Below, piece after piece: positions 1 to 40,023 of a stretch of DNA of 40,023 nt (position 1 is its first letter; every line of letters starts with the position of its first letter). A program made the translations under genes and the position numbers. Origin of the DNA: an uncultured Candidatus Saccharibacteria bacterium (lineage in GTDB: Bacteria > Patescibacteriota > Minisyncoccia > UBA6257 > JAKLIH01); assembly GCA_964350215.1 (NCBI GenBank), contig CAYGJE010000001.1, positions 1 through 40,023 on the forward strand, read 5' to 3'. A model generated the notes under the pieces. That model did no database searches and was not told where the DNA came from. It was given only the letters and a program-made list of their open reading frames with translations.

Positions 1-72
1 AATCTCAATCATAACCCCCACACTCAGCTTCTGAGTGTGGGGGCCATGCTAAACCTGGCAACGTTATGATTG
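1..72. repeat. 72-bp nested-hairpin repeat, copy 1 (may extend left of the window)
   Basis: Matches 749..820 with 1 mismatch. Outer inverted repeat TCAATCATAAC/GTTATGATTGA encloses a perfect 13-bp stem CCCCCACACTCAG-ctt-CTGAGTGTGGGGG. Confidence 0.9.
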
Positions 73-120
73 AAAATTAGCGTTTTATCGTTCCTTGGGT
101 ATAACATATTTTTACGTAAT

Positions 121-150
121 AATAAAAAACCCGAGATTATGTCTCGGGTT
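121..150 (-). terminator. intrinsic terminator after CDS 137..508
   Basis: Stem ACCCGAGA/TCTCGGGT (129-136/142-149), followed on the minus strand by a T-run. It overlaps the TAA stop. Confidence 0.8.
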
Positions 151-508
151 TTACGATTGATTTGACGATAAAAGGGCCAGTTAGATCCTTTTTTATTTCG
201 TCAATATTTTCGCCTAAGGCCTCTACTCGGCCCTCTAAGTAGGCCTTGTAGCTGGGCAAATGCTTATCGATATTGTTTTCAATATCGATAGCTTTCCAAG
301 TGGGGCTGATTTTGTTGGGGACAAGCTGAAAATCCATATCCCCAACGGTTACACAAACGCCTTTCTCGCCTGCTAGCAGGCGCTCAAGGCGATCATCAAT
401 GTGTCTACTCGCTTGCTTTTCCCAGGATAAATATCCTAGAAAAATGATCATTAAGACAACAAGGAAAACTAGATACGAAACGAAATTACTGTCATTTTTC
501 TTGCTCAT
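137..508 (-). CDS. small N-terminally membrane-anchored protein, function unknown (123 aa)
   Basis: ATG at 508 lies 7 nt after a GGAGGA Shine-Dalgarno site. The track start at 556 falls at or upstream of the predicted TSS. Hydrophobic helix FVSYLVFLVVLMIIFLGYL, TAA stop, Trp encoded by TGG only. Confidence 0.7.
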   Translation of the reverse strand: MSKKNDSNFVSYLVFLVVLMIIFLGYLSWEKQASRHIDDRLERLLAGEKGVCVTVGDMDFQLVPNKISPTWKAIDIENNIDKHLPSYKAYLEGRVEALGENIDEIKKDLTGPFIVKSIVKPET

Positions 509-556
509 TTTTATCCTCCAAAAATTTATATATAAACTTTCAACGAACTGAGTCAT

Positions 557-585
557 ATTATATCATAATATCTTTCTGTTGTCAA
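557..585 (-). promoter_or_regulatory. sigma70-type promoter TTGACA-17-TATAAT
   Basis: Minus strand reads TTGACA (580-585), a 17-nt spacer, then TATAAT (557-562), upstream of CDS 137..508. Confidence 0.7.
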
Positions 586-640
586 GCCCCCAAAATTAAG
601 CAAGCTAAAATCTAAGTGAAATTTTTTAAAACCCTTTTCT

Positions 641-677
641 TTCAATTATAGCGTTGCCTGGCAACGTTATAATTGAA
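641..677. repeat. 37-bp near-perfect palindrome related to the 72-bp repeat
   Basis: TTCAATTATAGCGTTGCC-t-GGCAACGTTATAATTGAA. Shares CCTGGCAACGTTATrATTGAAAA with repeat copy 1 (51-77). Confidence 0.8.
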
Positions 678-748
678 AAAACCTAAAAAAGGTACAAAAG
701 ACAAGAAAAAACATACCCATGTCCCTATATTTTCGCATAAATTAGGTA

Positions 749-820
749 AATCTCAATCATAACCCCCACACTCAGCTTCTGAGTGTGGGGGCCATGCTAA
801 ACCAGGCAACGTTATGATTG
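749..820. repeat. 72-bp nested-hairpin repeat, copy 2
   Basis: 71/72 identical to 1..72 (t/a difference at 54 versus 802). Confidence 0.9.
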
Positions 821-880
821 GCAGATTGGCTGTAATGTTGCAAACTAGCCCATAGATAGCGTTATTTTTGATTTAAAACA

Positions 881-908
881 AAAACCCGCTAAATATTAAG
901 CGGGTTTC
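881..908 (-). terminator. intrinsic terminator after secY
   Basis: ACCCGCT-n8-AGCGGGT hairpin, followed by TTTTTG on the minus strand, 20 nt after the secY TAA. Confidence 0.8.
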
Positions 909-928
909 TGCTGTTATTGATGTTATGA

Positions 929-2200
929 TTAGTAATCATATTCTCTCATGGCAAGTTGAGCTTCGATTGAATTTTTGATCTCAAGCGCAATAGCCACGAT
1001 AAGTAAAATGGATGTGCCACCAATTTCAAATGTGGTGACTTTGGTCAATCCTTGCAGTAACATTGGAAGTATTGCCACCAATGCCAAGAATATAGCACCA
1101 AACAAAGTTATTTTTCCTGAAACCTTGGATAAATAACTAACTGTGTTGTCCCCTGGCCTGTAACCTGGGATAAATCCACCGTTTTTTTGCAAATTGTCGG
1201 ATATTTCTTTTGGACTGAAAGTGATTGATGTGTAGAAAAAAGTGAACAACAAAACCAAAATAAAGTAAATTGACATATAGAAGGCCTGATTTTCGATAAG
1301 TTTGGTCAAGATGTTTGCCCCAGTTACCAAAAATGTTATGTTGGTGGTGGCTAACATTTGTCCGATCAAAGCAGGAAATGTCAACACTGATAATGCAAAG
1401 ATTATAGGGATAACGCCAGCTTGATTGACTTTCAATGGTAGAAATGTGGTAACTCCACCAAACATTTTGTTGCCTCTGACATGCTTGGCATACGATACGG
1501 TCAATCTTCTTTGGCCTTCAGTGAGATAAACAACACCCACAATCATAAGCAATGTAACCACTAAGAACAAAGCGACATTGATTATTTGAGGGATGGTGGT
1601 GTAGGTCAACACTGTGGCGATAACACTTTTTGGTAAGCTAGTAACTATACCAGAAAAGATAATAAGTGAAATACCATTGCCTAACTTCTTTTCGGTGATT
1701 AGTTGACCGATAAAGATGATAACAAATGATGCTGCTGTCAAAATCAAGATATTTTGTCACATCATGAGTCGTGATGCAAAGGTTATGATACCTTGTGATT
1801 TTAGAATGCTCAACATACCCAATGCTTGCAATATGGTAAGTGGCAATGCCAAATACTTTGTTCAGCTTTCAAATTTGCGTCGTCCTTCTTCACCGTTTTC
1901 TTGAAATGTTTCTTTGAGTGAAGGCACAATCACAACAACCAATTGCATTATAATGGAGGCCGAGATATAAGGCCCAACGCCCAATAGTGCGATTGATAGA
2001 TTTTGAAATGCTCCACCGGTGAATATGTTAAACAACCCAAATACTTTGCTTTGCGCCATAAACTCTTTCATTTGCGAGACATCAATGCCTGGCAAAGGAA
2101 TAACGGCCATTAATCTAAAAACTACCAATAAACCAAAAACAATAAAGAGGTTTTTCCTTAAATCTTTATGTTTTAATAGTTTTATAAAATTTTTGATCAT
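929..2200 (-). CDS. secY: preprotein translocase subunit SecY (423 aa, 2 in-frame TGA)
   Basis: ORFs 929..1747 and 1862..2200 are in the same frame, joined through TGA at 1862-1864 and 1757-1759. Motifs GEEGRRKF and GNGISLIIFSGIV. TAA stop. Confidence 0.95.
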
Positions 2201-2237: not shown

Positions 2238-2735
2238 CTATTTTTTAGCTGGCTTAACTGGTTTTTCTCTTTTTGGAAATTTGGCTGGTTTTGGAGCTGG
2301 TTCAATTTTTACAATTGTGCCGCCAGCTTTTTCAATAATTTCTTTTCCGCTTTTGGTGATATCAATGCCTTTAATAGAAAACTTTTTGTCTAATTTTTTG
2401 ATGGAACCAATAATTTTGAATTTCTTGGCTCTTTTTGGAATCAATCCTTGTTTGCGAAGTGATTGTTCGGTAACTTCAAAATTGTTTGGGCATTGTTCTG
2501 CAATGTGTCGCAATTGGATTTCGTAGATATCTTTTTTGATTATGACATTGCCAGCTCCTCTCATTTTTGGAGTTCTAAGCAATTGTTCTTTTAACTGTGA
2601 CTGTATCTTGCGGCCAGCTCTGGCTGTTTGACCTTTGCCTCCTTTGCCGCTGTAGGTACCGCGTTTGCCACCACGACCAACTCTTTGCTTTGGAGCAATT
2701 TTGCTTTTTGGTCTTTTTATATTATGGATTTGCAT
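2238..2735 (-). CDS. rplO: 50S ribosomal protein L15
   Basis: N-terminal KRVGRGGKRGTYSGKGGKGQ-type motif. Sits between S5 and SecY. TAG stop. Confidence 0.93.
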   Translation of the reverse strand: MQIHNIKRPKSKIAPKQRVGRGGKRGTYSGKGGKGQTARAGRKIQSQLKEQLLRTPKMRGAGNVIIKKDIYEIQLRHIAEQCPNNFEVTEQSLRKQGLIPKRAKKFKIIGSIKKLDKKFSIKGIDITKSGKEIIEKAGGTIVKIEPAPKPAKFPKREKPVKPAKK

Positions 2736-2758
2736 GTTTAATATATTAATATATTAAA

Positions 2759-3391
2759 TTAATTTGCCTCTGCTGGAACTGTTTCTTCCACTTTTGGTTT
2801 TTCGACTTTTACTCCCTTTTTCTCTTGTTCCATTGAATAAATATGAGAAATCTTTTCTAAAGCAGCTATAGCAGCTTTACCGTTGTTGATTGGGCTGTGA
2901 GACCCGCTTAATGTTTTGCAGGTAACATTTTTGATACCAGCTAAAAGCATAATGTCTCTGACAACGCCTCCAGCAATAACTCCTTTACCTTCTTTGGCTG
3001 GCTTCACCAAAATGCGACTTGCGCAATGCTTGGCTTCCACTTCATAAGGAACAGTGTTGTTGATTATTGGCACTGTGATCATATTTCTGGTGGCTTCTTT
3101 TTTGGCTTTGTCGATTGCCTTTGGTACATCGTCTCCTTTGGCTGTGCCGATGCCGATTTTGCCTTTGTTGTTGCCGAGCAACATGGTGACGCTAAAGCTC
3201 ATGTGTTTGCCTCCAGCGGTAACACGAGTAACTCTTCTGATACCAGCAATCAATTGATCAAAGTCGCTGTTTTTGACTATGTTTCTAAATGGAGTTCTTC
3301 GGTTGTCACCTTCTCTTTTTTGACCTGGTTTGGCAAATCTTGATTGGTTAGGACCGCCTCTTTTGTTGTTGAAATTATCGTTTGTTTTCAT
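2759..3391 (-). CDS. rpsE: 30S ribosomal protein S5
   Basis: RVTRVTAGGK..FSV and GIGTAKG..VP.AI.KA motifs. Only 23 nt separate it from rplO, so no L30 gene is present. Confidence 0.95.
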   Translation of the reverse strand: MKTNDNFNNKRGGPNQSRFAKPGQKREGDNRRTPFRNIVKNSDFDQLIAGIRRVTRVTAGGKHMSFSVTMLLGNNKGKIGIGTAKGDDVPKAIDKAKKEATRNMITVPIINNTVPYEVEAKHCASRILVKPAKEGKGVIAGGVVRDIMLLAGIKNVTCKTLSGSHSPINNGKAAIAALEKISHIYSMEQEKKGVKVEKPKVEETVPAEAN

Positions 3392-3784: not shown

Positions 3785-4324
3785 TTAGCCGGCTTTTTTG
3801 CCACTCTTCTTGGTTACCTTTTCATCGCTATAGCGAATTCCTTTCATGGAGTATGGGTTGGTTTTTCTTTGTTTTCTTGCTACTGATGCGAAATCGCCAA
3901 CTGATTTTTTGGATATACCGTTGATAATTATGTTGGTTTTTTCAACAGTGACGGTCAAATCCTCTGGAATTTCTAATGGAACTGGATGAGAATAACCAAC
4001 ATTAAGAATAAGCTCTTTGCCTTTTACTTCGGCCTTGTAGCCAATTCCTTCGATGATTAAGCGTCTTTCAAAGCCAGTATTAACACCAATGACACAATTG
4101 TTGATTAGTGCCCTTTGTGTTCCTCAAATAGCAAAAAATTCGCGACCTTCTTTTTTAGGTTGCAAAGTTATTTCTTTTTTTTCACTGTCAAATTTTACTT
4201 CAACCTTGTCATTTAAATCGCACAACAAAGTGCCCTTAGGCCCTGTTATTTTGATGACATTTTTGTCTATTTCCACTTGGTTGTTTTCTGGAATTTTTAT
4301 TGGTGCTTTGCCTATTTTTGACAT
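3785..4324 (-). CDS. rplF: 50S ribosomal protein L6 (179 aa, 1 in-frame TGA)
   Basis: MSKIGKAPIKIP start. Read-through of TGA at 4124 gives ..GTQRALINNCVIGV..GYSHPV.. down to the TAA at 3785. Confidence 0.93.
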
Positions 4325-4809: not shown

Positions 4810-4995
4810 TTATCAGCTTGATTTTTTAACGCCAGGAATAACTCCTTTTGAAGCAAGTTCACGAAAACAAATTCGGCATAAGCCAAAATCGCGCATATAT
4901 GCTCTACTTCGGCCACAAGCAAAACATCTGTTTGTCTTGCGAGAGCTATACTTTGGTTCTTTTTTTGATCTTGCTATTGCAGATTTTTTTGCCAT
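4810..4995 (-). CDS. rpsN: 30S ribosomal protein S14, zinc-binding short type (61 aa)
   Basis: CxxC..CRIC motif. The track stop at 4813 is TGA followed directly by TAA, giving the canonical C-terminus KKSS-W. Confidence 0.95.
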
Positions 4996-5028: not shown

Positions 5029-5607
5029 TTATTTTTTAGTTGGTGTCTCAGCAATTGGCTTTAAAGGAAATCCGATTGTTTCGAATAAGTGAATTGCTTT
5101 TTCTTTGGATTTGGCGTTGGTGACAAAGTTTATCTCTATACCAAAGTTTGGTTTTAAAATGTCGAAAGACAATTCTGGGAAAGCATTCATTTCTTTTACT
5201 CCTAAAGTCAAATTACCAGCTTTATCAAACTTCTTTCTTTCTACACCTCAGAAGTCACGGGTACGAGGCATCACAATGTTGACAAATCGATCAAAGAAAT
5301 CTTCTTTCTTTTTGCCTCTCAATGTGACTGATATACCAACTGGGGTCCCTTCTCTTAATTTGAAGCCAGCAATTGATTTTTTGGCTTTACAAATTCTTGG
5401 CTTTTGACCAGTGATGCGTGCTAATTTATCAGAAAGATCTTTGATCAAGTTGTCGGTGTTTTCATTGGCAGCTGCCATACGACCAATTCCAGTGTTGATG
5501 GAAATTTTGGTAATCTTTGGAACTGACATTTCGTTTTTGACACCGTGTTGCTTCTTGAAAAAATCTTGAGTAATTTTTTTGTAGTTTTCGATGTATGATA
5601 TTTTCAT
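5029..5607 (-). CDS. rplE: 50S ribosomal protein L5 (192 aa, 1 in-frame TGA)
   Basis: ORFs 5248..5607 and 5029..5211 are in the same frame across TGA 5248-5250. Sequence reads ..PRTRDF-x-GVERKKFDKAGNLTLGVKE... This TGA sits where most bacteria have Arg. Confidence 0.93.
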
Positions 5608-6409: not shown

Positions 6410-6664
6410 TTAATAACTAAGCTTGTCAACAATCAATCAGCTTTTATCTTTGGATATTGGTCGTGTTTCCTCAATAATAACTTTGTCGCCTGCCTGGAAC
6501 TTATTATCGGGATTATGAGCTTTGTATCTTTTTGAAGTTTTGTAGTATTTGTGATATAACGGATGTTCTTTAAGTCGAGTGACCTCCACTACGGCAGTCA
6601 GCATCATTTTGCTGGACACCACAACACCAGTTAATTGTCTTTTTTGGATTTTCGAATTGTTCAT
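6410..6664 (-). CDS. rpsQ: 30S ribosomal protein S17 (84 aa, 1 in-frame TGA)
   Basis: Read-through of TGA 6437-6439 gives ..[17 protein letters not shown], then TAA. Matches the conserved S17 ..SK.KSW.. motif. Confidence 0.93.
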
Positions 6665-6862: not shown

Positions 6863-7273
6863 CTATCGTTTAATTATTTTTGTTCTAAAAGGAAGCTTGT
6901 AGCTGATTTGTTGTAAAGCTTTCATAGCGTCGCTTTCGGCAATGCCGTCAAGCTCAAAAATAATACGACCTGGCTTTACTTGGAAAACATAATGATCGAC
7001 GTCTCCTTTTCCGCCACCCATTCCAACTTCTGGTGGTTTTTTGGTTATTGGTTTATCAGGAAAAACTCTAATTCAAATCTTACCGCCTTTTCTAATAAAT
7101 CGAAGTAAAACTCTACGGGCTGATTCAATTTGGCGACTGGTAATTCTTTTGTTGTCAGTGCTACAAATACCATATGAGCCATATTCAAGATTTACTCCGC
7201 GACTTTCAAAGTTGCGTTTCAAACTTCTGCCCTTTTGCATTTTTCGATATTTGGTTCTTTTTGGAGTAAGCAT
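6863..7273 (-). CDS. rplP: 50S ribosomal protein L16 (136 aa, 1 in-frame TGA)
   Basis: [11 protein letters not shown] start. TGA 7073-7075 gives [18 protein letters not shown], an invariant Trp in L16. TAG stop at 6863. Confidence 0.96.
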
Positions 7274-7295: not shown

Positions 7296-7982
7296 TTAAT
7301 TGATTTTGTTGCTCTTTTGTTTGCTAAAAGTTTCACCTGTGTAAATTCAAACCTTGATCCCTATTTTTCCGTATGTACAATTTGCTGTGGTGGATGAGTA
7401 ATCAATGTTTGCTCTCAATGTGTTTAATGGCAATTTGCCGTCTTTGACAAAGTCAGATCTAGCAATATCTGCGCCATCTAATCTGCCGGTGACATATATC
7501 TTGGCACCTTTGACTTCTCTGTTGGACATTATTCTTTCAAGATATTTCTTTATGGTTTTGCGATAAGAAATTCTTTTTTCGATATCATCTTTAAGGTCAA
7601 ATCCAACAATTTGAGCTGACAAATATGGTTTTCTTACTTCTTCGATATTGATGCTGATGCTGAATTTGTCGCTAATTCTTTCTTTTTTTCTAAATTTCAA
7701 AATGGCTTTTTCTATTGTCTTTTTGGCGTCATCAAGACCTTCGCCTTTGTGCTTGATTATCATACCTGGCTTAGCTGTAAAAATGGTAACGTTAATGCGA
7801 TCACCTTTTCTTTCTAGCTCGATTATTTGATAATGGGCTTTAGCCAACAAAGGTTCGAGAGTTTTTCTGATCAATTCATCTTCGGCCAACTTTCAAGGAA
7901 AGTTTTCCAAATCAAATCATCTAGAACTTCAGTTCTTGTTGATGCCTAATCTTTTGATTATTGGATTAATATGTTGTGCCAT
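7296..7982 (-). CDS. rpsC: 30S ribosomal protein S3 (228 aa, 4 in-frame TGA)
   Basis: Start MAQHINPIIKRLGINKN-W-SSR-W-F... C-terminus GKIGIKV-W-IYTGE... TAA at 7296. Confidence 0.95.
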
Positions 7983-8547: not shown

Positions 8548-8835
8548 TTATTTTTTACCTTTTTCGACTGTTTTTTGGAGTTTACCACCATGTTTGATGA
8601 ATTTTCTTGTTGGTGAAAACTCTCCCAAACGATGACCTACCATATCTTCTGTTGGGCTAACTTTGATAAAGTTTTTGCCGTTGTGAACTTCAAAGACAAG
8701 ACCAATCATTTCAGGAGTAATGGTTGAAGCGCGAGCTCAAGTTTTGATTGGGTCTTTATCTCCTATTTTCTTTTTGGCAACCTTTTCCATCAGCTTGGCA
8801 TCAACAAAAGGTCCTTTTTTGAGTGATCGAGACAT
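8548..8835 (-). CDS. rpsS: 30S ribosomal protein S19 (95 aa, 1 in-frame TGA)
   Basis: Not in the ORF track because TGA splits it. Hand translation gives [46 protein letters not shown]. Confidence 0.93.
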
Positions 8836-8905: not shown

Positions 8906-9733
8906 TTATTTTTTGGACTTGCGACGTTTAACAATAAGTTTGTTTGAATATTTTTTGGTCTTTCTGGTTTTTCTTCCACCAGTAACATTTCCTCATTTGT
9001 CTTTTGGTCGTTTAGTACCTCTTTTGGTTTTACCTTTTCCACCTCCGTAAGGATGATCACAAGCATTCATGGCACTGCCTCGAACAGTTGGGCGAATACC
9101 TTTGTGTCTGTTGCGTCCAGCTTTACCAACGCTTATTAAAGCGTGTTCTCCGTTGGAAGCAGCTCCTATTGAAGCAAAACATTCGTTTAAAACCTTTCTA
9201 ACTTCTGTGGATGGCATCTTTAGATAGGCATACTTTCCTTCTAGACCAACCACTATCAAAGAAGCTCCAGCACTACGTGCTAATTTGCCGCCACCGTCAT
9301 TTTTGATTTCGACATTGTGGACAGCTGTGCCGCTTGGAATGTTTTTAAGTTTCATGCGGTAACCTGGTTTTAAAGGTGTAACATCATCGCATAATATTTC
9401 ACTTTTGGCTTCAATGCCTTGTGGAGCGATGATATAGTGTCTTGAACCATTTTGATATACTACCAAAGCAATAAAAGCTGTTCGATATGGATCATATTCG
9501 ATTGTTTCTACTCTGCCTTTAATACCTTTATTGACTTGGCCAAAACTAACCATACGATAGTTCTTTTTGACAGCTCCGCCTTTGTGTCGCATACTTATTT
9601 TGCCGCGACTGCGTCCTTGAGCTGGCTTATATCCCTTTGTGAGGGGTTTATAAGGTTCTTCGTGGGAAAGCTTTGATCTATCAATATCAATATGGTGTCT
9701 TTTTGTTGGTGTTGTTGGTTTATAAGTTTTCAT
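8906..9733 (-). CDS. rplB: 50S ribosomal protein L2 (275 aa, 1 in-frame TGA)
   Basis: Read-through of TGA 8993-8995 gives ..RPKDK-W-GNVTGGRKTRKTKKYSNKLIVKRRKSKK. This aligns with the conserved ..P-W-G..KTRK..IV.RR tail. Confidence 0.96.
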
Positions 9734-13593: not shown

Positions 13594-13603
13594 GTGTTGC
13601 TGG

Positions 13604-15872: not shown

Positions 15873-15879
15873 CCTGCAA

Positions 15880-28331: not shown

Positions 28332-28354
28332 AATTTAAACTTTAAATTTGTTAA

Positions 28355-29418: not shown

Positions 29419-29425
29419 AATTTAT

Positions 29426-29803: not shown

Positions 29804-29810
29804 ATTGTAA

Positions 29811-30164
29811 TTATTTAACCAATTGTAATATAACCATGTGACTGGCATCTTTTAATCGACGTTCTGCCAATTTGATTATGCGAGTGTATCCCCCATTTCG
29901 ATCTTGATATTGTTTGGCAATATCATAGTAGAGTTTGTTTGCTGATTTTTTAGGAAGCTTTGAGAGTAACAATCTTAAAGCAGCAATGTCTTGTTTCTTT
30001 GCCTTGGTGATCAATTTTTCAACATAAATTTGAGCTGCTTTTGCTCTAGCGGGTGTTGTTTTGATTGATTCATAAGTAATGAGATTGTTGGCCAATATCT
30101 TTACCATGGCATGTCGTTGGTCTGTTTTTTTGTGTAGTGTTATTTTTTTCTTTAGATGTCTCAT
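29811..30164 (-). CDS. rplQ: 50S ribosomal protein L17
   Basis: MRH..K...L......R.AM...L...L......I.TT..RAK motif. Downstream of rpoA. Confidence 0.93.
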   Translation of the reverse strand: MRHLKKKITLHKKTDQRHAMVKILANNLITYESIKTTPARAKAAQIYVEKLITKAKKQDIAALRLLLSKLPKKSANKLYYDIAKQYQDRNGGYTRIIKLAERRLKDASHMVILQLVK

Positions 30165-30184
30165 AATATTATTTTATATACTGT

Positions 30185-31114: not shown

Positions 31115-31142
31115 ATTTGTTTTGATTAGTTGTTTATTAATT

Positions 31143-31772
31143 CTAGCGAGAGAAGAACTCTACGATAGTTTCAAAATTGAATGGCAAGTTTAAGTCAGCA
31201 ATGTTTGGTTCTTGTGACAATTTGACAGTCAATTTTTCCAAGTCAATTTTGATGTGGCTTGGTGCCTTTTTCTTCAAAACACTTTCTTTGATATTTTTGA
31301 AATCTTCGATTGTTTCTGATTCTTTTCTGATGCCAATTTCGTCATTTATTTTCATAAATGTTGAGGCAATATTATGACGACGGCCGTTTAACATAAAATG
31401 ACCATGGTTGATAAGTTGTCTGGTTTCTTTTTTGGATTTGCCAACGCCAGCCAAAAATAAAATATTGTCCATTCTTTTTTCTAAAAGTTTGGCTAAATTA
31501 TCTGGAGTGGATCCAGTGGTTTTCTTGGCTTTTTTGAACAAATTGGACAATTGGGTTTCATTGACACCATAAAACAATTTGACTTTTTGTTTTTCAAATA
31601 ATTGTTTTTGGAAGTTGGACATTGCCCGTTTGTATTGTCTTTTTTGCTTTGTGCCTCCTGGAGGATATGGTCTTTTATTGAGAGTGCATTTTTCAGAATA
31701 ACACTTGTCCCCTTTTAAGAACAACTTTTGAGCATAAGCGCGACATTTTTTGCATTTTGCATCTATTTTCAT
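31143..31772 (-). CDS. rpsD: 30S ribosomal protein S4 with N-terminal Cys cluster (209 aa)
   Basis: Start MKIDAKCKKCRAYAQKLFLKGDKCYSEKC. S4-domain RLDN..F..G......ARQL..HGH. The track ORF start at 31874 overlaps rpsK, so I rejected it. Confidence 0.93.
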   Translation of the reverse strand: MKIDAKCKKCRAYAQKLFLKGDKCYSEKCTLNKRPYPPGGTKQKRQYKRAMSNFQKQLFEKQKVKLFYGVNETQLSNLFKKAKKTTGSTPDNLAKLLEKRMDNILFLAGVGKSKKETRQLINHGHFMLNGRRHNIASTFMKINDEIGIRKESETIEDFKNIKESVLKKKAPSHIKIDLEKLTVKLSQEPNIADLNLPFNFETIVEFFSR

Positions 31773-31806
31773 ATAAAACGATTTAAAAAAATTTTTGGTT
31801 AAAATA

Positions 31807-32271
31807 TTATACTCTTCTGGCTTTTCTTGGTCTGACACCGTTATGAGGAATTGGAGTAACATCCAACACCGCATAAATATTTAATCCGGCTTGACCGCCA
31901 TAGTTGATAAGTGTTCTCAATGCTGTTTCACGACCACGTCCCACACCTTTCATGCGGACTTCCACGTTGAGTGGTAAACTCTTTTTTATCTTTTCTATCA
32001 ATGCCTCGGCTACTTTTGATGCAGCAAATGGAGTTGATTTTTTGGTACCTTTAAAACCAGTGCTTCCAGCTGTGGATGTGGCAAAAACATTACCTGATTC
32101 ATCGGCAGCTTGAATAATTGTGTTGTTGAAAGAAGCGTTTATAAACATAATGCCTCTTTTGGCGCCTTTGAGTGCATCAAATTCTTTTGATGCTGCGTTC
32201 TTGATAGTGGCATTTATCTTGTCGGCTTCGTCAGTGGTGGAAGCTTTTGATATAACTCTAATTTTTCCCAT
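31807..32271 (-). CDS. rpsK: 30S ribosomal protein S11 (N-terminally extended)
   Basis: ..INASFNNTII.. and DVTPIPHNGVRPRKARRV C-terminus. Confidence 0.95.
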   Translation of the reverse strand: MGKIRVISKASTTDEADKINATIKNAASKEFDALKGAKRGIMFINASFNNTIIQAADESGNVFATSTAGSTGFKGTKKSTPFAASKVAEALIEKIKKSLPLNVEVRMKGVGRGRETALRTLINYGGQAGLNIYAVLDVTPIPHNGVRPRKARRV

Positions 32272-32306
32272 AGTGACTTGTTAAAATATAGTTAATTAAT
32301 GGATTG

Positions 32307-32696
32307 TTATTTTGGTGTGGCAGCTTTTGCTCTACCAGAGCCAAGTGACTTACGAACATTGCCTCTCACGGTTCTGGTGTTGGTTTTGGTTCTTTGCCCT
32401 CTAACTGGCAAATGTTTGGTGTGTCGACTGCCTCTGTAACTGCCTATTTGAACTAATCTTGTAATATTTTTTCTCTCTTCTCTGCGCAACTCGTTTTCAA
32501 CAGTAAAGTTCTTTTCAATGAAATCTTGAATTTTTTTCAATTCGTCGGGTGATAAGTCCTTGGTTCTGATGGTTGGATCAATTTTGAGCTCAGCAAGTAT
32601 TTGCTTTGCCTTTGGAAGACCAATGCCATAGATATAAGGCAATGAGTATGCTATTGTTTTTGTGTCTGGAATGGTTATACCGAAAATTCTGGCCAT
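32307..32696 (-). CDS. rpsM: 30S ribosomal protein S13
   Basis: MARIFGI.IP and YRG.RH...LPVRGQRT.TN motifs. Confidence 0.96.
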   Translation of the reverse strand: MARIFGITIPDTKTIAYSLPYIYGIGLPKAKQILAELKIDPTIRTKDLSPDELKKIQDFIEKNFTVENELRREERKNITRLVQIGSYRGSRHTKHLPVRGQRTKTNTRTVRGNVRKSLGSGRAKAATPK

Positions 32697-32773
32697 ATTG
32701 CTAAATTTTATGCTACGCGTTTGTTTTTGATTAAAACAGTGCGATATTTGTTAAAAAATTGGTTATTGAAAAA

Positions 32774-32890
32774 CTAACCTTGTCGTTGCTTGTGTTTTGG
32801 ATTCTTTGAGCAGATAACTCAAACACGACCTTTGCGACGAATGGTTTTGCAATCACTACATATTTTTTTGACTGAAGCTTTTACTTTCAT
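32774..32890 (-). CDS. rpmJ: 50S ribosomal protein L36 (38 aa, 1 in-frame TGA)
   Basis: Hand translation gives [38 protein letters not shown]. Confidence 0.92.
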
Positions 32891-32920
32891 TTTTTTGTGT
32901 TTATTGTTTTTTTCAAAATA

Positions 32921-32951
32921 ATATTTGTTAATTTGTTCAATTAACAAATAT
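32921..32951 (-). terminator. AT-only 13-bp hairpin after infA (weak terminator or processing site)
   Basis: ATATTTGTTAATT-tgttc-AATTAACAAATAT, 20 nt after the infA stop. Confidence 0.35.
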
Positions 32952-32970
32952 GTTAAACTTATTAAGCTCG

Positions 32971-33201
32971 CTAGTATCGATAAACAATGCGCCCACGCTT
33001 CTGGTCGTATGGGGTCATTTCTATCGCCACCTTGTCTCCGACAAGAATTTTGATGAAATGCATCCTCATTTTGCCTGATAAATAGGCCATTATTTCGCGA
33101 TCATCGTCTAACTTTACTTTAAAGTTTGCAGATGGCAACGACTCAATAACAACGCCATCCAAACGGATAGTGTTGCTTTCATTTTTGCTTGTTGTTTCCA
33201 T
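32971..33201 (-). CDS. infA: translation initiation factor IF-1 (76 aa)
   Basis: ..G.V.E.LPNA.F.V.L.....I.A..SGKMR...I.I..GD.V..E..PYD..RGRI.YR motif. ATG 33201 chosen because the promoter lies inside the longer track ORF. Confidence 0.93.
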   Translation of the reverse strand: METTSKNESNTIRLDGVVIESLPSANFKVKLDDDREIMAYLSGKMRMHFIKILVGDKVAIEMTPYDQKRGRIVYRY

Positions 33202-33208
33202 GTTTATT

Positions 33209-33237
33209 ATATTACTATAAAAAGTTAAATTAGTCAA
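33209..33237 (-). promoter_or_regulatory. infA promoter GGGTATTGACT-17-TAATAT, only 7 nt from the ATG
   Basis: TTGACT 33232-33237, TAATAT 33209-33214, ATG at 33201. Confidence 0.65.
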
Positions 33238-34840
33238 TACCCAGGTAGATTTTTTGAAAATTGCCTGGAACAGTGCTTATTCAGAATGGCCAGAGCTTCA
33301 TGGTGACCTTTTCCACTCCTTTTGTTTGGAGCAAAATATCTTTTACTTGATTCATCTTTTTGCCCTTTACACTATTGAATATATCACTGGCTTCAATTTT
33401 CTTTTTTGTGGGATATGACACGCTCAAATTTATTTCGACTTGCTTTTCTTTGTCATTTAGCTTGATGCTATTGATGGCTTCTTCTGGAGTGCTAAAAAGC
33501 TCTTCATCTTCTGAAAGCCCTTTGGCAATATTATTTTTTAACACATTTTGATAATCGGTTTTTGAAAATACTGTTGCTCTTGCCTCCCCTTTTATTTCTA
33601 CAGTAAATTTGTCTTGGCTGGCACCCACTTTAGCAGAAGCAACTGGAGATCCAACTTGTTTTACTATTATATCAGAAAATGTTTTTTCATGGGAAGCGAT
33701 TTGCGCTTCTATTTTTGTTTTGAAATCGGTAAATAAAATTTCACTAATTTCTTTGGTGGCGTTTTGAATATCTGCTTCAGACACAACCACTGATTCACCA
33801 CTACTTCCTCCAGCGAACTTTTCTACACTTTCAGCATAAAACCCATCAAATCTTTCTGTGCCTTTAAATCCTGGAATAGTAAATCGAACTTTGTCGATGT
33901 TGTAGGCCTCGCCATTTTCTTCAGCAGTAACTGTGACCTCAATGGAACTTTTAGATAGATCTCCGTTTTTGATGGTGCCACCAGGAACAGTAACTCGATT
34001 GTCCAATCGAAAAATCAAGCCATCTGGACTTTCAAATCTTGTGTTTGGCACCAATATTTGAGGAGAAGTATTAAAAGCATTGTAAATGATTATCTTGCCT
34101 CTTGCTTTAGCTCCACCAGAAACCTTACCAGTGGCATTAAACTCTTTGGAAGCACTGGCTTCTACTTTTATTTCCCTACCCTTGATAATGTTTTTATCGA
34201 TGTTGGATGCTTCTATACTAGAATCAACGATAATTTTGCCAGAATATTCAATGGAGCCCTTTTCACTGATAATGTTGATGGTGGCTCTATTGAAAACAAA
34301 AGATGCTAGTGCTACTCCACCAACCATTAACACCCCTGCTGCTGTGGCTAGGGTTAAGAATTTTTTCTTGAAACCCAAAGATGTTCTTGGTTTGTAGTTT
34401 TTGACTTTTATTTTTTCTTCTTTTTTGCCGATCTTAGCAACTTTTTCTTTTTTGACTACTCTTTCTCTTTTTTTGAAAAAAGAAAAACTTATTCGCCTTT
34501 TATTGGCCTTTTTCTTTTTTGGCTCTAGCACAGGTTCTTCCACATATTCTATTTCTTCCACCTCTTCGTATTCCTCTTCTTCATCTGCTGGCTCTTGTTG
34601 AACAATAGATGGAATTTGGCTGTAGGCAAAATTCTCTTTTCTAATAGGAATAGAAAAATTTGTTTTTTCTTCTTCCTCTTCGACAGCTTCTTCGCTGCAA
34701 GGCAAATAAATATCCAAATACAAATCGTCTTTGGAAGACACTTTTGCTTTTGTGGTTTTTTTGATTTTAGTCACGGCTATTTTTTTATTTTTTATATAAG
34801 CTATTATATAAAGTATAGTAAAAAAGAAAGTAAATGTCAA
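33230..34840 (-). CDS. large membrane-anchored extracytoplasmic protein (about 515-536 aa, 1 in-frame TGA). Start uncertain
   Basis: Acidic/Lys-rich N-terminus, single TM helix (LTLATAAGVLMVGGVALASFVF), long beta-rich region. TGA 33281 is read through (..KLWPF-W-ISTVPGNFQKIYLGID) to the TAA at 33230. A TTGACA-17-TATACT box at 34805-34833 suggests a later start such as GTG 34774. Resembles CPR proteins sometimes labelled baseplate J-like, recalled from memory only. Confidence 0.6.
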
Positions 34841-34923
34841 TGCGTTGTCATGGGTATGCGGGCTTCTTTTTTAACTTTTGATTATAGATTTGACATTTGA
34901 TTTAGTTTTTGTTTCGCATTCCA

Positions 34924-34985: not shown

Positions 34986-36638
34986 TTATTTTCTAAAAAT
35001 GTTCTTTATCATATCCGACAATCCTTGGCTGTCGATTTTGTCTTTGATCTCTTTTCTCTTTTTTTCTATATCAATGTTTGTTTTGGGTGGGCGGCAATCT
35101 TCTCTTGGGGTATTTGAAAATCTTGTGTCTTGAAAAGATTGGCCACTTGGCTGTTGGCTTGGATAGTTATCATTGCTCATGGCTTGCTTTTTTGCCTTTA
35201 CTTCTTCAAAACATTCGTTGCAATAGACATTTTTGGATGGATCGGGCTTAAATGGCACAAGCGCTGGTTTTTTGCATTTGGAGCACACCACTTCTCAATA
35301 TTCGGTCTTGCTTTGAGTGCGTGGGTTTATATTGGATGGTGCAAATTCAAGAGCACTTCATTTTTTGATTTCTTTTTCCACCTCTTCCCTTTCTTTGGCA
35401 TATAGATTTCGGGAATTTTCAACTATTTCATTTTTGTAACTTATTTCATAAGGAGCAAGCGGTGGCTCACCATTTGCAGAAAAAGAATTTGAAGGCATGC
35501 CATCGATTAGATATTTGATATAAAAATGATAGTTGGGAATGTTAATCAGATCATTGGCGTTGAAATCAGGATGAAATTGTTTTTCTAGTGCGCTGGCATC
35601 ATCTGGGCCAATACGAAAAGAGATCATGGCACCAACGTTACCAAAAACAGCATCTTTTACTTTGTCGCTTAGCTGCTTGATATATTGATGAGTCAATATT
35701 AAGCTAAGATTGTATTTTCTGGCCTCAGATAAAATGTTGGCAAAAGATTCAGTGGAAAAAGTTTGAAACTCATCGATATACAAATAAAAGGCCTTGCGGT
35801 CTTCAAATGGCATGTCGGCACGAGACATGGCTGCCAACTGAATCTTGGTGACAATCAATGCGCCAAGAAGAGTGGTGTTTTCTTCACCAATCAAACCCTT
35901 TGACAAATTGACAATCAAAATCTTACCTTCGTCCATAATTTTACGAGGGTCGATATTACTTTCTAGCTGTCCGATAATGTTTCTTATAAGTGGATTGGAT
36001 ATAAACTGCCCTACTTTGTTTTGGATTGGAGCGATGGCTTCTCTTCGGAATTTTTGATCATATTTGTCAAATTCGTTGGTTCAAAACGCCTTGACTGTTG
36101 GGTCAGAAACTTTTTGAACAACATCTTGACGATAACTGTCGTCAGCCAACATACGATTGATACTAAGAAGTGTGGCGTTTGGATATTCCAATAAAGCCAA
36201 TATGGCATTGTTGAGAATATATTCCATACGAGCTGACCACACATCTGGCCAGATTTTTTTAAATACTGCCATAAGACCAGAGCTAACTATATGTCTAACT
36301 TCAATAGGAACTTGTTCCACAATGTTGAAAGCAATAGGTCATTCGATGTCAGCTGGATTGAAGTACACCACATCTTTTATTCTTTCCTTGGGAACATAAT
36401 TGATAATTTTGTCGGCTAATTCGCCATGTGGATCCACAATGGCAATGCCGTGATTTTTCATGATATCTGAAAAACACATGTTTTCGATAAAGGTGGATTT
36501 GCCGGTACCGCTTTTACCAATGATATACATGTGGTATTTGCGGTCGTTTTTTTTGATGCCAAATTTAACCTTGTTGGCACGAAAATTGGTGGTGCCTAAT
36601 ACAGTCAAGTCGTCGTTATTGTTTGGTGGTTTGGGCAT
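34986..36638 (-). CDS. VirD4/TraG-like (type IV coupling protein family) P-loop ATPase with C-terminal CxxC..CxxC zinc ribbon (550 aa, 4 in-frame TGA)
   Basis: Walker A GKSGTGKST and Walker B LYIDEFQ. ORFs 36339..36638, 36081..36320, 35358..35936 and 34986..35291 are all in one frame, separated only by TGA. C-terminal CSKCKKPALVPFKPDPSKNVYCNEC. Confidence 0.8.
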
Positions 36639-36664
36639 AAGAAAATATATTAAAAATGTTTAAA

Positions 36665-37933
36665 TTATTCCATAATAATAGGTAGGTTTGGAGGAGGAGC
36701 TGTTTCTTTGCTCTTGATGTATACCACAGATTGCACAGACACTCTTTGAAATGGAAAATGGTAAATAGCAGCTATTTCTTCGGAGTTCAATACAAAAATT
36801 TTCTTTTCGTTGGTGCGTTTAATCACTCTTTGATAAAAATCATTTTTCATTTGTTGTTCTACTTTGGCTTTAGAAAATTGAGCCAATCATTTGTTTAGAG
36901 CGCCTTCCACTTTTTGCTCTATACCTTTGTCGGCTATGGCATCAAAAGAATTTTGAGACGTGGTGGCAAATTGTTTTACAAACATAAGCAAAGCGTTTGG
37001 CACAAATTTTTGAAAACCTTCTTTGGGTGCAACGTACGCAACCCTAAAATTGCAAGCAAAAGTTCCAAAATCATTTTTTTGTTTTAACAAGTCAGCCATC
37101 TTTTTGTCGTCGGCTGATGGCTCCTTTTTTTCTTCTTTCTTCTCTTCCTTTTTTTCTTCTCCTTCGGTGAAGGCCTTTAGCATATCTTTGAGAATACCAG
37201 TGCCAATTTCTGCGAAGTGCTGAGAAGCAGTTTTCTTTGGTTCAGGGGCCTTGCCTAAGAGCTTGCCGGTTACCATACCAGAACTTTCTTTGTATTTGGC
37301 TTTTTCTGGATCAGAAAGTGGCCTGACTACTAGTTGGGCAATCATGACTCCTTGATAATCAGCTCTATCGGCTGTCTCGGCCAATATGGATATTGGATCG
37401 ATTATCTTGCTATCGTCATCACTGACAATGTCTTTTTCAATGGTTTTTATTTTGTAGATGTCTTCTTTTTTGAGCTTGTATTCTTCGCCTCACACATCAA
37501 AAGAAACATTGGGAATGTTTGGTGCCAATGTGGAAAGCACATCAGTGACTTCAGCAATTCTGATGTCTGGGTATTGAGAATAAATGCCAACTTCCACCAA
37601 ATCTTTTAATGACTTTGGTGTGATACAAAAATATCTAAGCTGGTTTTTGAAACATATGATTTCAAATATGATAGTTTTGCCGTCTTTGATCTTTATGTTT
37701 TTAAGATTTTCAAAAAAGTTTTTCATGGAAGTCACTGGTTGTTTGAAACTGTCTTGAGAAAAGGTTATTTCCAAAAAAACTCTTGGATCTTCGTCGGACT
37801 TGGCGGTGAGTTTTTTGTATTCTTTAAAAAACTTTTTGATATATACAAAAAGAGCTAGTGGTATGATTAGCCACCAAAACTCTCTTAGTATTATTGTTGA
37901 AAATTCGATAATTTTTGATAAAAAATTTATCAT
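36665..37933 (-). CDS. membrane-anchored partner protein of the VirD4-like ATPase (422 aa, 2 in-frame TGA)
   Basis: ORFs 37490..37933, 36887..37384 and 36665..36886 are in the same frame across TGA. N-terminal TM helix, EK-rich linker, C-terminal ..EEIAAIYHFP.. motif. Confidence 0.65.
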
Positions 37934-37943
37934 TTATTGCTTT

Positions 37944-39047
37944 TTAGGCGCTCAAAACCGGTAAATCGTTGATGTCTTGATCGTTTTTAAGCGTTGCTTT
38001 TAATTGATATTTGCCGTTGGCAGTTTTTTCGAAACATTTGTTGTTTCTTAGGTTGAACCTAATGGTGTTTTCTTTAGCCATTCTTTGCTCTTGAACTTTT
38101 GTGATCAATTCGTCTTCTGAAAGTGCATTGTTGTTGCTGGCTTGGAAAATGTTGGCAATAATATCTTTGATAACTCCTTTGCTGTAGCCCCATTCTGCTA
38201 AAGCATAATGACCATGCCCTATCAAAACAAAGCGATCGTCTTTGATAAGCTCATTGTGAACTGTTTGCACACTGACAATCTTTTTCTTTTTGTTGGTTGT
38301 TTGGTTGATGATGATGTCTTCGTGCTCTTTGATGTAGTTGGTGAGAGCTTTAAAATGAACTGGCTTTTTGAGATAGTATTTCATTAAGAAATAGGCCTTG
38401 TCACGAGCATTGAGTGGATTGATGATTGATCATGAAATCAAACCATATTGTCCAAAAGGATTGGCGCCTATTCTCTTGTAGGTGTGCAACACATTGGCCA
38501 ATTGTTTGGTGGTGGTGGTTTGCTTTTTAATTTTGGCAAAAATTTCTTTGAGGGTCATTGGTTTTTGTTCTTTTTTCAAAATTGACTCTGCCTCTTCGGC
38601 TAGTTTTTTGATGCTGTCTAGTGACACGTTGGCAAAGCATCAAAATGGTTTGAAAAAGTTGTTGCCTGAGAAAAAATAAAAACTTTCATCCACTGACAAT
38701 AAAAAGTTAATGGATGAGTCCTTGATATCATCACCGTAGGTTTCTTTGAGGGAGTTGATAAAAGCAACGTTCTCTAAAACATTGCCATTTGATTTTAATA
38801 TCTTTTTGGCATTGTTGATAAAAGAAACATACATGGCTGACTTTTTTTGTTTTCTTATGGCGTCGAGTGATTCTTCTTGGATTTGTCTGATGCGTTCTCT
38901 GGTAACTTTAAACTCTTTGCCAATTGCATTAAAAGTCATGGCCTTTTCATCTTGAAGACCAAATCTTTTTTGTATGATAGTTTTTTCGCGACCAACCAAT
39001 GCTTTTGTCAAGTCATCGGTTAAAGTGTTGAGGTTGTTCTTTGGCAT
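37944..39047 (-). CDS. sigma-70 region-4-like HTH followed by two HARE-HTH-like domains (367 aa, 2 in-frame TGA)
   Basis: ..IIQKRFGL....MTFNAIGKEFKVTRERIRQIQEESL.. (region 4). ..GQYGLIS-W.. and ..GHGHYALAEWGY.. (HARE-HTH-like). Three track ORFs are in the same frame, joined by TGA 38640 and 38430. Confidence 0.7.
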
Positions 39048-39078
39048 AATAATGTATTAATGTTGTTATATTACCTAT

Positions 39079-39107
39079 AATATAACATAGTTATTTAAAT
39101 AAGTCAA
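39079..39107 (-). promoter_or_regulatory. promoter TTGACT-17-TATATT
   Basis: TTGACT 39102-39107 and TATATT 39079-39084. Confidence 0.55.
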
Positions 39108-39129
39108 GAGACGTCTTCGCCTTTTTGGT

Positions 39130-39693
39130 CTATGCTCTTTCAACATATTCGCCCCGATCGGTGTTGATTACTATGGAGTCATCTTGTTTGATAAACATGG
39201 GCACGTCCACTTCCAAATCGTTCTCAAGAAGCACTTTTTTCATGGCTCCGCTGGCAGTGTTGCCCTTGGCAGCACCTGGATCTTCTTTGACTTTGTAGGT
39301 GATTTTGATTGGCAAAATAAAACTAACTGGCTCTTCTTCCACATAGATGATATCTATTTGGATGTCTTTTTTAAGGTATTTTAGCTTTTCTTCGAATATC
39401 TCTGTTTTTAAGCTAAATCGTGATTTGTTTTTTTCATCAGTGAACACCACTTCCTTTTGGTTGTGATATACATAGATGGCCTTTTTTCTTTCGGATTCTA
39501 GCTCTTCGAATTTTTCATTTGATTTAAATGATATTTCTTTGGTGGCGTTGGTTTTAAGATTTTTGATTTTTGTTTGCATGAATGCCCCGCCCTTGCCTGG
39601 CTTCAAAAATGCATATTCTAAAATAATCCATGGTTGGTTTTCGTGTTTGATTATGGTGCCTTTTGAAAAATCTGATGTTGATATCATATACAA
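39130..39693 (-). CDS. efp: elongation factor P
   Basis: ..KPGKGGAF..TK.KN.. loop. Three-domain length. The true start may be the ATG at 39687 (MISTSDFSKG). Confidence 0.9.
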   Translation of the reverse strand: MYMISTSDFSKGTIIKHENQPWIILEYAFLKPGKGGAFMQTKIKNLKTNATKEISFKSNEKFEELESERKKAIYVYHNQKEVVFTDEKNKSRFSLKTEIFEEKLKYLKKDIQIDIIYVEEEPVSFILPIKITYKVKEDPGAAKGNTASGAMKKVLLENDLEVDVPMFIKQDDSIVINTDRGEYVERA

Positions 39694-39864
39694 AGTTTAT
39701 TTTTTAAAAATTGAAAAACGATTGAAAATTTTTATATACAAAATATAATAAAGTGGAAAATATAATTACCAATACAAGTGTTATGATTTTTTGCATATAT
39801 AAATTTTATTATATATCTATGTTATCACAAAAAATATAAATTTTCAAATCATTCCCAAAAACTA

Positions 39865-39893
39865 TTGACTTTTGCTCATATTTGTAGTAAACT
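39865..39893 (+). promoter_or_regulatory. tRNA promoter TATTGACT-17-TAAACT
   Basis: TTGACT 39865-39870 and TAAACT 39888-39893, 20 nt before the tRNA 5' end. Confidence 0.6.
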
Positions 39894-39913
39894 AACACTG
39901 TTAAATAAATTCC

Positions 39914-39986
39914 GCCTCCATAGCTCAGCTGGTAGAGCAACAGCCTTTTAAGCTGATGGTCGCAGGTTCGAGTCCTGCTGGAGGCA
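39914..39986 (+). tRNA. tRNA-Lys (anticodon UUU), CCA not encoded
   Basis: Acceptor GCCTCCA/TGGAGGC, D-arm TAGCTCAGCTGGTAGAGC, anticodon loop CTTTTAA, T-arm GCAGGTTCGAGTCCTGC. Confidence 0.9.
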
Positions 39987-39990
39987 CAAA

Positions 39991-40019
39991 CCCAGCCACT
40001 TTAAGTGGCTGGGAATTTT
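39991..40019 (+). terminator. intrinsic terminator after tRNA-Lys
   Basis: CCCAGCCACT-tta-AGTGGCTGGG, followed by AATTTT. Confidence 0.8.
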
Positions 40020-40023
40020 CTAA

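Follow-up and report, generated by a model that had tools for sequence, protein, structure and literature searches.

Sequence evidence for tryptophan at UGA in a ribosomal operon segment of an uncultured Patescibacteria in, or sister to, the family JAKLIH01

Introduction

Reassignments of stop codons are rare in bacteria. Tryptophan (Trp) is encoded by UGA (i.e., translation table 4) in the Mycoplasmatales, in reduced endosymbionts (Hodgkinia, Zinderia, Nasuia, Stammera, and Pinguicoccus/Organicella) and in genera of the Eggerthellaceae; the usual mechanism is the loss of release factor 2 (RF2) combined with a tRNA-Trp that has the anticodon UCA. In the Patescibacteria, or candidate phyla radiation (CPR), the class JAEDAM01 (Absconditabacterales/SR1, BD1-5, and "Gracilibacteria") has also recruited UGA as a sense codon, but there for glycine (Gly; table 25). 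Here we describe a 40-kb stretch of DNA (positions 1–40,023 of contig CAYGJE010000001.1, hereafter the window) in which UGA is, as judged from sequence comparisons, a sense codon for Trp. Very probably, the window is a segment from an uncultured, ultra-small member of the Patescibacteria, in or sister to the family JAKLIH01, and the whole clade uses table 4, with UGA read as Trp and with only UAA and UAG for termination.

UGA-to-Trp reassignment in JAKLIH01 was reported as a "new independent case" in the Patescibacteriota (PMC13092985; Nucleic Acids Res, 20 April 2026). The report was based on 150–303 Codetta columns and gave a stop usage of 0% UGA, 82–88% UAA, and 12–18% UAG. A tRNA-UCA was found in 2 of 4 JAKLIH01 genomes, RF2 in 0 of 4 but in 26 of 27 relatives, and JAKLIH01 was listed with the lineages that have an ordinary tRNA-Trp(CCA) with a 5-bp stem (PMC13092985). 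The gTranslate preprint (bioRxiv 10.64898/2026.05.24.727570, 28 May 2026) added 12 JAKLIH01 genomes, most of which have tRNA-Trp(UCA) and lack prfB, as well as a second lineage of the class Minisyncoccia with the same reassignment, the genus GCA-2747955. The reassignment in this family is therefore already known. A first-pass annotation of the window, made from the sequence alone, had regarded UGA = Trp as unusual in CPR; this was reasonable while recoded CPR were known only for UGA = Gly, i.e., before 2026, but is outdated by the reports cited above.

With this lineage, the Patescibacteria are the first bacterial phylum known to have three genetic codes (tables 11, 4, and 25). The window leaves current knowledge unchanged, the reassignment having been published for this family in 2026, and represents one more, fairly deep-branching member. 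The details that it adds are the near-complete conversion of UGG to UGA in core genes, how seldom the nearest relatives with the standard code use UGA stops and a conserved UGA at an invariant arginine (Arg) of uL5. The window is thus a correct detection of a rare and recently published code variant, which has a practical use for annotation: table-11 gene callers shred these genomes, and the resulting splits distort both annotation and estimates of completeness.

Results and Discussion

In-Frame TGA Codons and Stop Codon Usage

The window has a G+C content of ~35%, and nearly all of its genes lie on the minus strand. When open reading frames (ORFs) of at least 60 aa were called on this strand with TAA and TAG as the sole stops, 50 ORFs were obtained, 27 of which contained a combined 45 in-frame TGA codons. 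One of the 27 (612–809) is doubtful. The short bL36 gene brings one further TGA, for a total of 46 in 28 genes, which agrees with the more than 40 in about 25 genes counted in the first-pass annotation. All 50 genes end with TAA (40) or TAG (10) and none with TGA; this stop usage (80, 20, and 0%) resembles that published for JAKLIH01. The earlier claim that genes end with TAA or TAG holds for the 50 genes as called; at its supposed exception, the in-frame TGA at 20501, the ORF goes on to a TAA, and this TGA is not needed as a stop.

For comparison, uL3 of the window was searched against one genome per GTDB species (185,579 species genomes), and the best 80 loci were taken. Six metagenome-assembled genomes (MAGs) of Patescibacteria (L004–L009) matched the window uL3 at 68–85% identity, while the next best match reached at most 51%. 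In a tblastn search of these loci with all window proteins, in-frame TGA codons inside conserved genes were confined to the window and L004–L009 (6–25 per locus), with essentially none in the 74 other Patescibacteria loci (hereafter the outgroups). Among 127 conserved genes of the recoded relatives, 117 end with TAA and 10 with TAG, and no TGA stands just before these stops, save for the Trp codon of uS14 described below. Neither the window nor these 127 genes of its relatives require UGA for termination. A comparison of ORF coverage under tables 11 and 4 across the loci gave no discrimination in such A+T-rich DNA, and homology-anchored codon counts were used instead.

Public table-11 gene calls treat these TGA codons as stops; if they were, the interrupted genes would be pseudogenes, products of assembly errors or sites of programmed read-through or selenocysteine insertion. 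That TGA is still a stop is, however, exceedingly improbable. The 46 TGA codons are spread over 28 genes that include those for EF-G, SecY, RpoA, and essential single-copy ribosomal proteins, and six other species at 73–88% identity also have TGA at these codons. Moreover, homology carries on undiminished past every TGA, no gene needs TGA to end, and the sites are Trp columns rather than Cys or selenocysteine columns. The proposal of the first-pass annotation that UGA is a sense codon, placed as it is in essential genes and kept in six related genomes, is therefore upheld.

The Amino Acid Encoded by UGA

Alignments with the 74 outgroup loci spanned 23 TGA sites of the window and gave 880 outgroup residues at these sites, i.e., W 560, Y 62, R 55, K 38, F 35, E 32, and G 1, among others. 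In columns that were at least 80% conserved, TGA aligned to W at 10 of 13 window sites. A Codetta-style tally of the 64 codons showed that all other sense codons with data, including CGA, CGG, and AGG, keep their standard meaning. In the seven recoded genomes, the codons at 16 Trp-conserved columns were TGA in 56 cases and TGG in one.

Evidence that is independent of the outgroup residue counts points in the same direction. TGA and TGG replace each other within the clade at eight codons (SecY 24 and 148, uS3 178, uL4 64, EF-G 52 and 518, MTAP 114, and rSAM 41). The uS14 gene of five inspected outgroups ends with KKSS-TGG followed by TAA or TAG, whereas those of the window and L005–L009 end with TGA-TAA, in line with the C-terminal SS-W of the first-pass annotation. 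In addition, bL36 reaches full length only when its TGA is read through.

Gly (table 25) deserved consideration, as the members of JAEDAM01 are the classic recoded CPR lineages and the TGA site of the MTAP-family phosphorylase is Gly in 14 of 117 homologues. Its probability is nonetheless close to nil: Gly accounts for 1 of the 880 aligned residues against 560 for Trp, none of the Gly-conserved columns has a TGA, GGN codons show their normal alignment to Gly, TGA swaps with TGG but never with GGN, and the closest relatives of the window belong to the Minisyncoccia rather than to JAEDAM01. Given the W-conserved columns, the TGA/TGG swaps, the end of uS14 and the length of bL36, the Gly and stop readings are both excluded. 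The column-wise statistics thus assign UGA to Trp, as the first-pass annotation had proposed.

The TGA-bearing genes of the ribosomal and translation clusters are listed below, with the outgroup residues and the state of the recoded relatives.

929–2200, minus strand: SecY; TGA at 1862–1864 (codon 113; outgroups Y 17, W 2; TGA in L005–L009) and 1757–1759 (codon 148; variable column; TGG in L005, TGA in L006–L009).
3785–4324, minus strand: uL6; TGA at 4124–4126 (outgroups W 32/37; TGA in L005–L009).
4810–4995, minus strand: uS14; TGA at 4813–4815, the final sense codon, followed by TAA.
5029–5607, minus strand: uL5; TGA at 5248–5250 (codon 120, motif RDF-x-G).
6410–6664, minus strand: uS17; TGA at 6437–6439 (outgroups F 29, W 4, H 2; TGA in L005–L009).
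6863–7273, minus strand: uL16; TGA at 7073–7075 (outgroups W 49/49).
7296–7982, minus strand: uS3; TGA at 7929–7931, 7917–7919, 7893–7895, and 7347–7349 (outgroups W 50/50, 50/50, and 49/49 at codons 18, 22, and 212; codon 30 is a clade-specific TGA in a variable E/D/Q column).
8548–8835, minus strand: uS19; TGA at 8737–8739 (outgroups W 50/50; TGA in L004–L009).
8906–9733, minus strand: uL2; TGA at 8993–8995 (outgroups Y 42, W 13; TGA in L004–L009).
10145–10792, minus strand: uL4; TGA at 10601–10603 and 10547–10549 (outgroups W 69/73 and 67/71; TGG at the first site in L006).
25677–27791, minus strand: EF-G; TGA at 27636–27638, 27576–27578, 27402–27404, and 26238–26240 (codon 52, W 33/58, TGG in L008 and L009; codon 72, W 29/35; codon 130, W 36/59; codon 518, K 32, W 3, TGG in L004).
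27867–28331, minus strand: uS7; TGA at 28029–28031 (outgroups W 21/21).
28813–29418, minus strand: uS9; TGA at 28825–28827 in the C-terminal motif PQ-x-RKR, a position that is presumably Phe in E. coli; TGA also in L009.
29426–29848, minus strand: uL13; TGA at 29573–29575, also in L009.
30185–31114, minus strand: RNA polymerase alpha subunit (RpoA); TGA at 30452–30454, also in L009.
32774–32890, minus strand: bL36; TGA at 32819–32821.

The first-pass annotation had placed TGA at invariant Trp positions of well-known protein families. This is borne out for uL16, uS3, uS19, uL4, uS7, and codons 52, 72, and 130 of EF-G, but the case is weaker for uS17, uL2, and the EF-G motif GHV-W. The columns in uS17 (F/W), uL2 (Y/W), and SecY codon 113 (Y/W) are aromatic.

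Placement in the Patescibacteria

Almost all of the 80 loci with the best uL3 matches carry Patescibacteria or CPR-type names. Those at or below 51% identity are named Zambryskibacteria, Paceibacterota, Minisyncoccia, and similar; the remaining ones (38–49%) are labelled bacterium, Planctomycetota, Anaerolineales, Gammaproteobacteria, or Nitrospira. No Mollicutes were found among these best 80 loci from 185,579 species genomes. In a neighbour-joining tree built from 3389 columns of ribosomal proteins and EF-Tu, with TGA positions masked, the window and L005–L009 formed one long-branched clade with no standard-code genome inside it. The window is 88% identical to L004 and 73–76% identical to L005–L009, which are 80–95% identical among themselves, whereas its identity to the three standard-code loci compared is 52–56%.

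L007 is contig JAKLIH010000004.1, whose whole-genome shotgun (WGS) prefix is the namesake of the GTDB family JAKLIH01. In the marker-protein tree, the window groups with this name-bearing contig, which also has the in-frame TGA sites of the window. As placed by these markers, the organism is in, or sister to, the family JAKLIH01 (order UBA6257, class Minisyncoccia). The window thus lies inside the Patescibacteria without affinity to Mollicutes, and the CPR-like origin proposed in the first-pass annotation is supported by close uL3 relatives that are all Patescibacteria MAGs and by the monophyly of the window with the name-bearer of JAKLIH01.

A contig with low G+C content and UGA = Trp could also be expected from Mollicutes, of which both traits are typical, or from another known table-4 lineage (insect or ciliate endosymbionts, Eggerthellaceae). 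There is hardly any chance of such an origin, given the names of the best 80 uL3 loci, the ribosomal-protein identities of 73–88% within the clade and 52–56% to other Minisyncoccia, the absence of L30 and the homologues of the MTAP-family phosphorylase, which are named Paceibacterota, Zambryskibacteria, or Minisyncoccales. The lineage of the window shares with the Mycoplasmatales, the reduced endosymbionts and the Eggerthellaceae genera listed above UGA = Trp, low G+C content, the preference of UGA over UGG, the lack of UGA stops, and small genomes with host-dependent lifestyles. These lineages belong, however, to other phyla, while the lineage of the window is part of the Patescibacteria, which also have table-25 and table-11 members; the origin of UGA = Trp in the window lineage is therefore independent of theirs. 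The genus GCA-2747955 shares both the class and the reassignment with the window but is a separate lineage, and among the fetched loci only L004–L009 show in-frame TGA.

UGA = Trp is common to at least seven genomes that together are monophyletic, and the reassignment therefore probably had a single origin in this clade. Among the genomes compared, the window and L004 together branch most deeply in the recoded group, and as a pair they are 73–77% identical to L005–L009. Considering the 80–95% identity within the latter, the window and L004 may form a separate genus. In a more speculative and improbable reading, they would be an undescribed genus-level lineage that is sister to all described JAKLIH01, in which case the reassignment would predate the radiation of the family.

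TGA Codons at Non-Trp Positions and Points against Uniform Recoding

Several points weigh against the proposal of a JAKLIH01-type lineage in which UGA is Trp throughout. First, TGA is found at outgroup columns that are not Trp, i.e., in uL5 (R 45/45), at codon 30 of uS3 (E), at codon 518 of EF-G (K) and at codon 100 of the VirD4-like gene (R 3/3). Second, no tRNA-Trp was detected by ARAGORN or Rfam searches of the window, 6 kb of extra flank, the recoded relatives or all 80 loci, where the tRNAs found were for Lys, Leu, and His only, tRNA-Lys(UUU) being the sole one of the window and flank. Third, membership in JAKLIH01 is based on ribosomal-protein similarity and the naming convention of accession prefixes rather than on GTDB-Tk, and the window could represent a sister family-level lineage instead of a JAKLIH01 member.

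The uL5 site was also flagged in the first-pass annotation as a poor fit to Trp. Codon 120 is indeed Arg in all 45 outgroups (codons CGA 10, AGA 10, CGT 11, and CGC 8), and its TGA is kept in the window and L005–L009, i.e., in all six recoded genomes with data. This is, however, no bar to Trp. Of 621 columns that are otherwise invariant, 49 are changed in the clade relative to the outgroups; the Arg-to-TGA change in uL5 is one of the 49, and there are further radical ones among them. Because the branch is long and the outgroup codons CGA and AGA are a single base change from TGA, codon 120 is probably a fixed Arg-to-Trp replacement. The TGA codons at uS3-30, EF-G-518, and VirD4-like codon 100, together with that of uL5, fit lineage-specific substitutions on a long branch. 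For the same reasons (i.e., the 49 changed columns and the single-base path), a second meaning of UGA at the uL5 site was set aside. Site-specific or ambiguous decoding at RDF-R-G of uL5, with the Arg column of the VirD4-like gene as a possible second case, would mean that UGA is not uniformly Trp, and we rate this as very improbable.

The first-pass annotation had a further misfit in the MTAP-family phosphorylase, where the TGA site (codon 182, motif QG-W-DVVNMT) was thought to be normally Ala or Gly. This did not hold for the subfamily in question. Among the 117 closest homologues, which are mostly from Patescibacteria and from which three near-identical table-4 calls were left out, 101 have Trp at this codon. 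The Ala that was seen in an alignment with PDB entries came from a comparison that is too distant, and horizontal gene transfer (HGT) from a table-25 donor, considered for a Gly-like site, was dropped in view of the 101 Trp residues.

Proposed Decoding and Release

The lack of tRNA-Trp in the window, flank and fetched loci means that for this organism the mechanism rests on the literature. By analogy with JAKLIH01 and Mycoplasmatales, the organism of the window likely has tRNA-Trp(UCA) and has lost RF2. A tRNA-Trp with the anticodon UCA would read both UGA and UGG, RF1 alone would terminate translation at UAA and UAG after RF2 was lost, and A+T-biased mutation would then have turned almost all UGG into UGA in core genes. 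The core translation genes of the window contain no TGG. The only gene in the window that resembles a release factor gene encodes the ribosome-rescue hydrolase ArfB. TGA ends 55 of 884 of the same genes (6%) in the standard-code outgroups, so the ancestors used UGA stops rarely, and this rarity fits a reassignment by codon capture after UGA stops had become rare.

UGA might instead be read by a near-cognate tRNA-Trp(CCA), for example a variant like that of Ca. Zinderia, whose anticodon stem has 4 bp. Its appeal is that tRNA-UCA was found in just 2 of 4 JAKLIH01 genomes (PMC13092985) and "mostly" in the further ones (bioRxiv 10.64898/2026.05.24.727570), and that the window contains no tRNA-Trp. 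We consider this unlikely, since the stem of the JAKLIH01 tRNA-Trp(CCA) is an ordinary one of 5 bp (PMC13092985), incompleteness of the MAGs accounts for the missing tRNA-UCA genes, and the TGA:TGG ratio of 56:1 at conserved Trp sites argues for an efficient cognate decoder such as tRNA-Trp(UCA).

Gene Content and Operon Layout

From high to low coordinates, the gene order of the window begins with EF-P, a sigma-70-region-4/HARE-HTH protein, a hypothetical membrane protein, a VirD4/TrwB-like ATPase with a treble-clef zinc finger, and a hypothetical protein. These are followed by IF-1, bL36, uS13, uS11, uS4, RpoA, bL17, uL13, uS9, uS12, uS7, and EF-G and then by a 12-kb island between EF-G and EF-Tu. 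The last part consists of EF-Tu, uS10, uL3, uL4, uL23, uL2, uS19, uL22, uS3, uL16, uL29, uS17, uL14, uL24, uL5, uS14, uS8, uL6, uL18, uS5, uL15, and SecY. The window is thus a chromosomal segment with ribosomal operons (alpha, str, S10, and spc) and a variable fusA-tuf island. A tRNA-Lys(UUU) at 39914–39987 is its sole RNA gene (ARAGORN, Rfam), and a 139-aa ORF at its left end (137–556) encodes a protein for which no record was found in a protein look-up.

The position of the alpha operon is unusual. Its genes (IF-1, bL36, uS13, uS11, uS4, RpoA, and bL17) and uL13-uS9 (28813–34870) lie directly upstream of uS12-uS7-EF-G (25677–28768) rather than downstream of secY, which in the window is followed by neither adk nor map. 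The order in L009 (RpoA-bL17-uL13-uS9 ... uS12-uS7-EF-G) matches that of the window.

The loss of L30 is a CPR trait. The spc operon of the window has the following junction.

2735–2759, minus strand: uS5/uL15 junction, with uS5 at 2759–3391, uL15 at 2238–2735, and a 23-nt gap.

So short a gap between adjacent genes leaves no L30 gene in the spc operon, in agreement with the first-pass annotation. Its remark that Shine-Dalgarno sites are lacking was confirmed as well, in that a Shine-Dalgarno-like 4-mer is found upstream of 5 of the 50 window genes against a background of 9%.

EF-Tu (11908–13107) and EF-P are identical to proteins of the ENA metagenome contig ERZ27247823:k141_472478 (L001, L084). 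Table-11 gene calls on this near-identical contig break exactly at the TGA codons of the window, so that uL4, uL16, uL5, uL6, uS3, uL2, and others are fragmented and the RpoA call ends after 220 aa at the TGA given above. The two sequences are not byte-identical: by coordinate mapping, the window extends ~590 nt past the end of the ENA contig (1–600), and the end of the uL15 gene differs (2229–2240). The window is therefore a second, closely similar assembly or strain.

Upstream of the alpha operon, four TGA-bearing genes were found.

33230–34870, minus strand: hypothetical gene without a Pfam match; TGA at 33281–33283.
34986–36638, minus strand: VirD4/TrwB-like ATPase with treble-clef zinc finger (Pfam); TGA at 36339–36341, 36081–36083, 35358–35360, and 35295–35297 (codon 186, W in 3/3 outgroups; codon 100, R in 3/3).
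36665–37933, minus strand: hypothetical membrane protein; TGA at 37490–37492 and 36887–36889; a single 422-aa call on Logan contig L085.
37944–39047, minus strand: sigma-70 region 4 + HARE-HTH protein (Pfam); TGA at 38640–38642 and 38430–38432; a single 367-aa call on Logan contigs L085 and L086.

The last three form a minus-strand block (34986–39047) with 8 in-frame TGA codons in total, of a type that the first-pass annotation had regarded as CPR-like. The 422-aa membrane protein has a Lys/Glu-rich linker, and the zinc finger of the VirD4-like ATPase is C-terminal. Pfam agrees with the first-pass assignments of the VirD4-like/zinc-ribbon and sigma4-HARE-HTH genes and of the RhuM gene described below.

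The fusA-tuf Island

The variable 12-kb island occupies 13600–25400, between EF-Tu (11908–13107) and EF-G (25677–27791). It contains genes for an AAA_14/DUF4143 ATPase, RhuM+Fic, ArfB, HTH+SocA/Panacea, and AbiEii with a 212-aa partner, as well as a gene cluster that resembles those for ribosomally synthesized and post-translationally modified peptides (RiPPs). The corresponding gap is ~2 kb in L008 and L009, while L004 holds ArfB and ABC-F genes and L007 holds SocA-HTH and ArfB genes. The TGA-bearing genes of the island are as follows.

15880–16707, minus strand: MTAP-family phosphorylase (Pfam PNP_UDP_1); TGA at 16162–16164 (codon 182); codon 114 is TGG in the window and TGA in L087.
16694–18091, minus strand: radical SAM (rSAM)/SPASM peptide-maturase-like gene (Pfam, NCBIfam); TGA at 17312–17314, 17168–17170, 17141–17143, 16991–16993, and 16832–16834, all five also TGA in L087; codon 41 is TGG in the window and TGA in L087.
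18809–19642, minus strand: AbiEii-family gene; TGA at 19031–19033, spanned by the Pfam AbiEii match (residues 39–242).
20438–20857, minus strand: hypothetical gene with no available homologue; TGA at 20501–20503, followed by 20 more codons in frame to the TAA at 20438.
21662–22435, minus strand: HTH + SocA/Panacea gene (Pfam); TGA at 21755–21757, a codon that is TAT (Tyr) in L007.
22507–22923, minus strand: ribosome-rescue hydrolase ArfB (GGQ; NCBIfam PRK09256 with 146.6 bits, cut-off 100); TGA at 22807–22809, also in L004 and L007, at a position that is presumably aromatic in E. coli ArfB.
22994–23986, minus strand: RhuM + Fic gene; TGA at 23666–23668 (codon 107), spanned by the Pfam Virulence_RhuM match (residues 64–132).

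The candidate RiPP-like cluster (14127–18319, minus strand) starts with a 64-aa Cys-rich ORF (18125–18319; containing KGCGVRGCCPTVEY) directly upstream of the rSAM/SPASM gene, whose best NCBIfam matches, the FibroRumin and PapB maturases, are below the cut-offs. The MTAP-family gene comes next and then a gene for a ribosomal-protection-like ABC-F protein (14127–15806; NCBIfam NF000355 with 418.8 bits, cut-off 380). Logan contigs L087 and L088 have these four genes in the same order. One may speculate that the MTAP-family phosphorylase clears 5'-deoxyadenosine from the rSAM reaction and, equally speculatively, that the ABC-F protein confers immunity.

Core genes lack Shine-Dalgarno-like sequences, and strong AGGAGG-type sites precede three island genes only (13604–14002, the ABC-F gene at 14127–15806, and 20438–20857). 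Together with the codon usage of the island genes (TGG 14 against TGA 11, compared to no TGG in the core translation genes), these sites suggest donors with the standard code and Shine-Dalgarno sequences as the source of part of the island.

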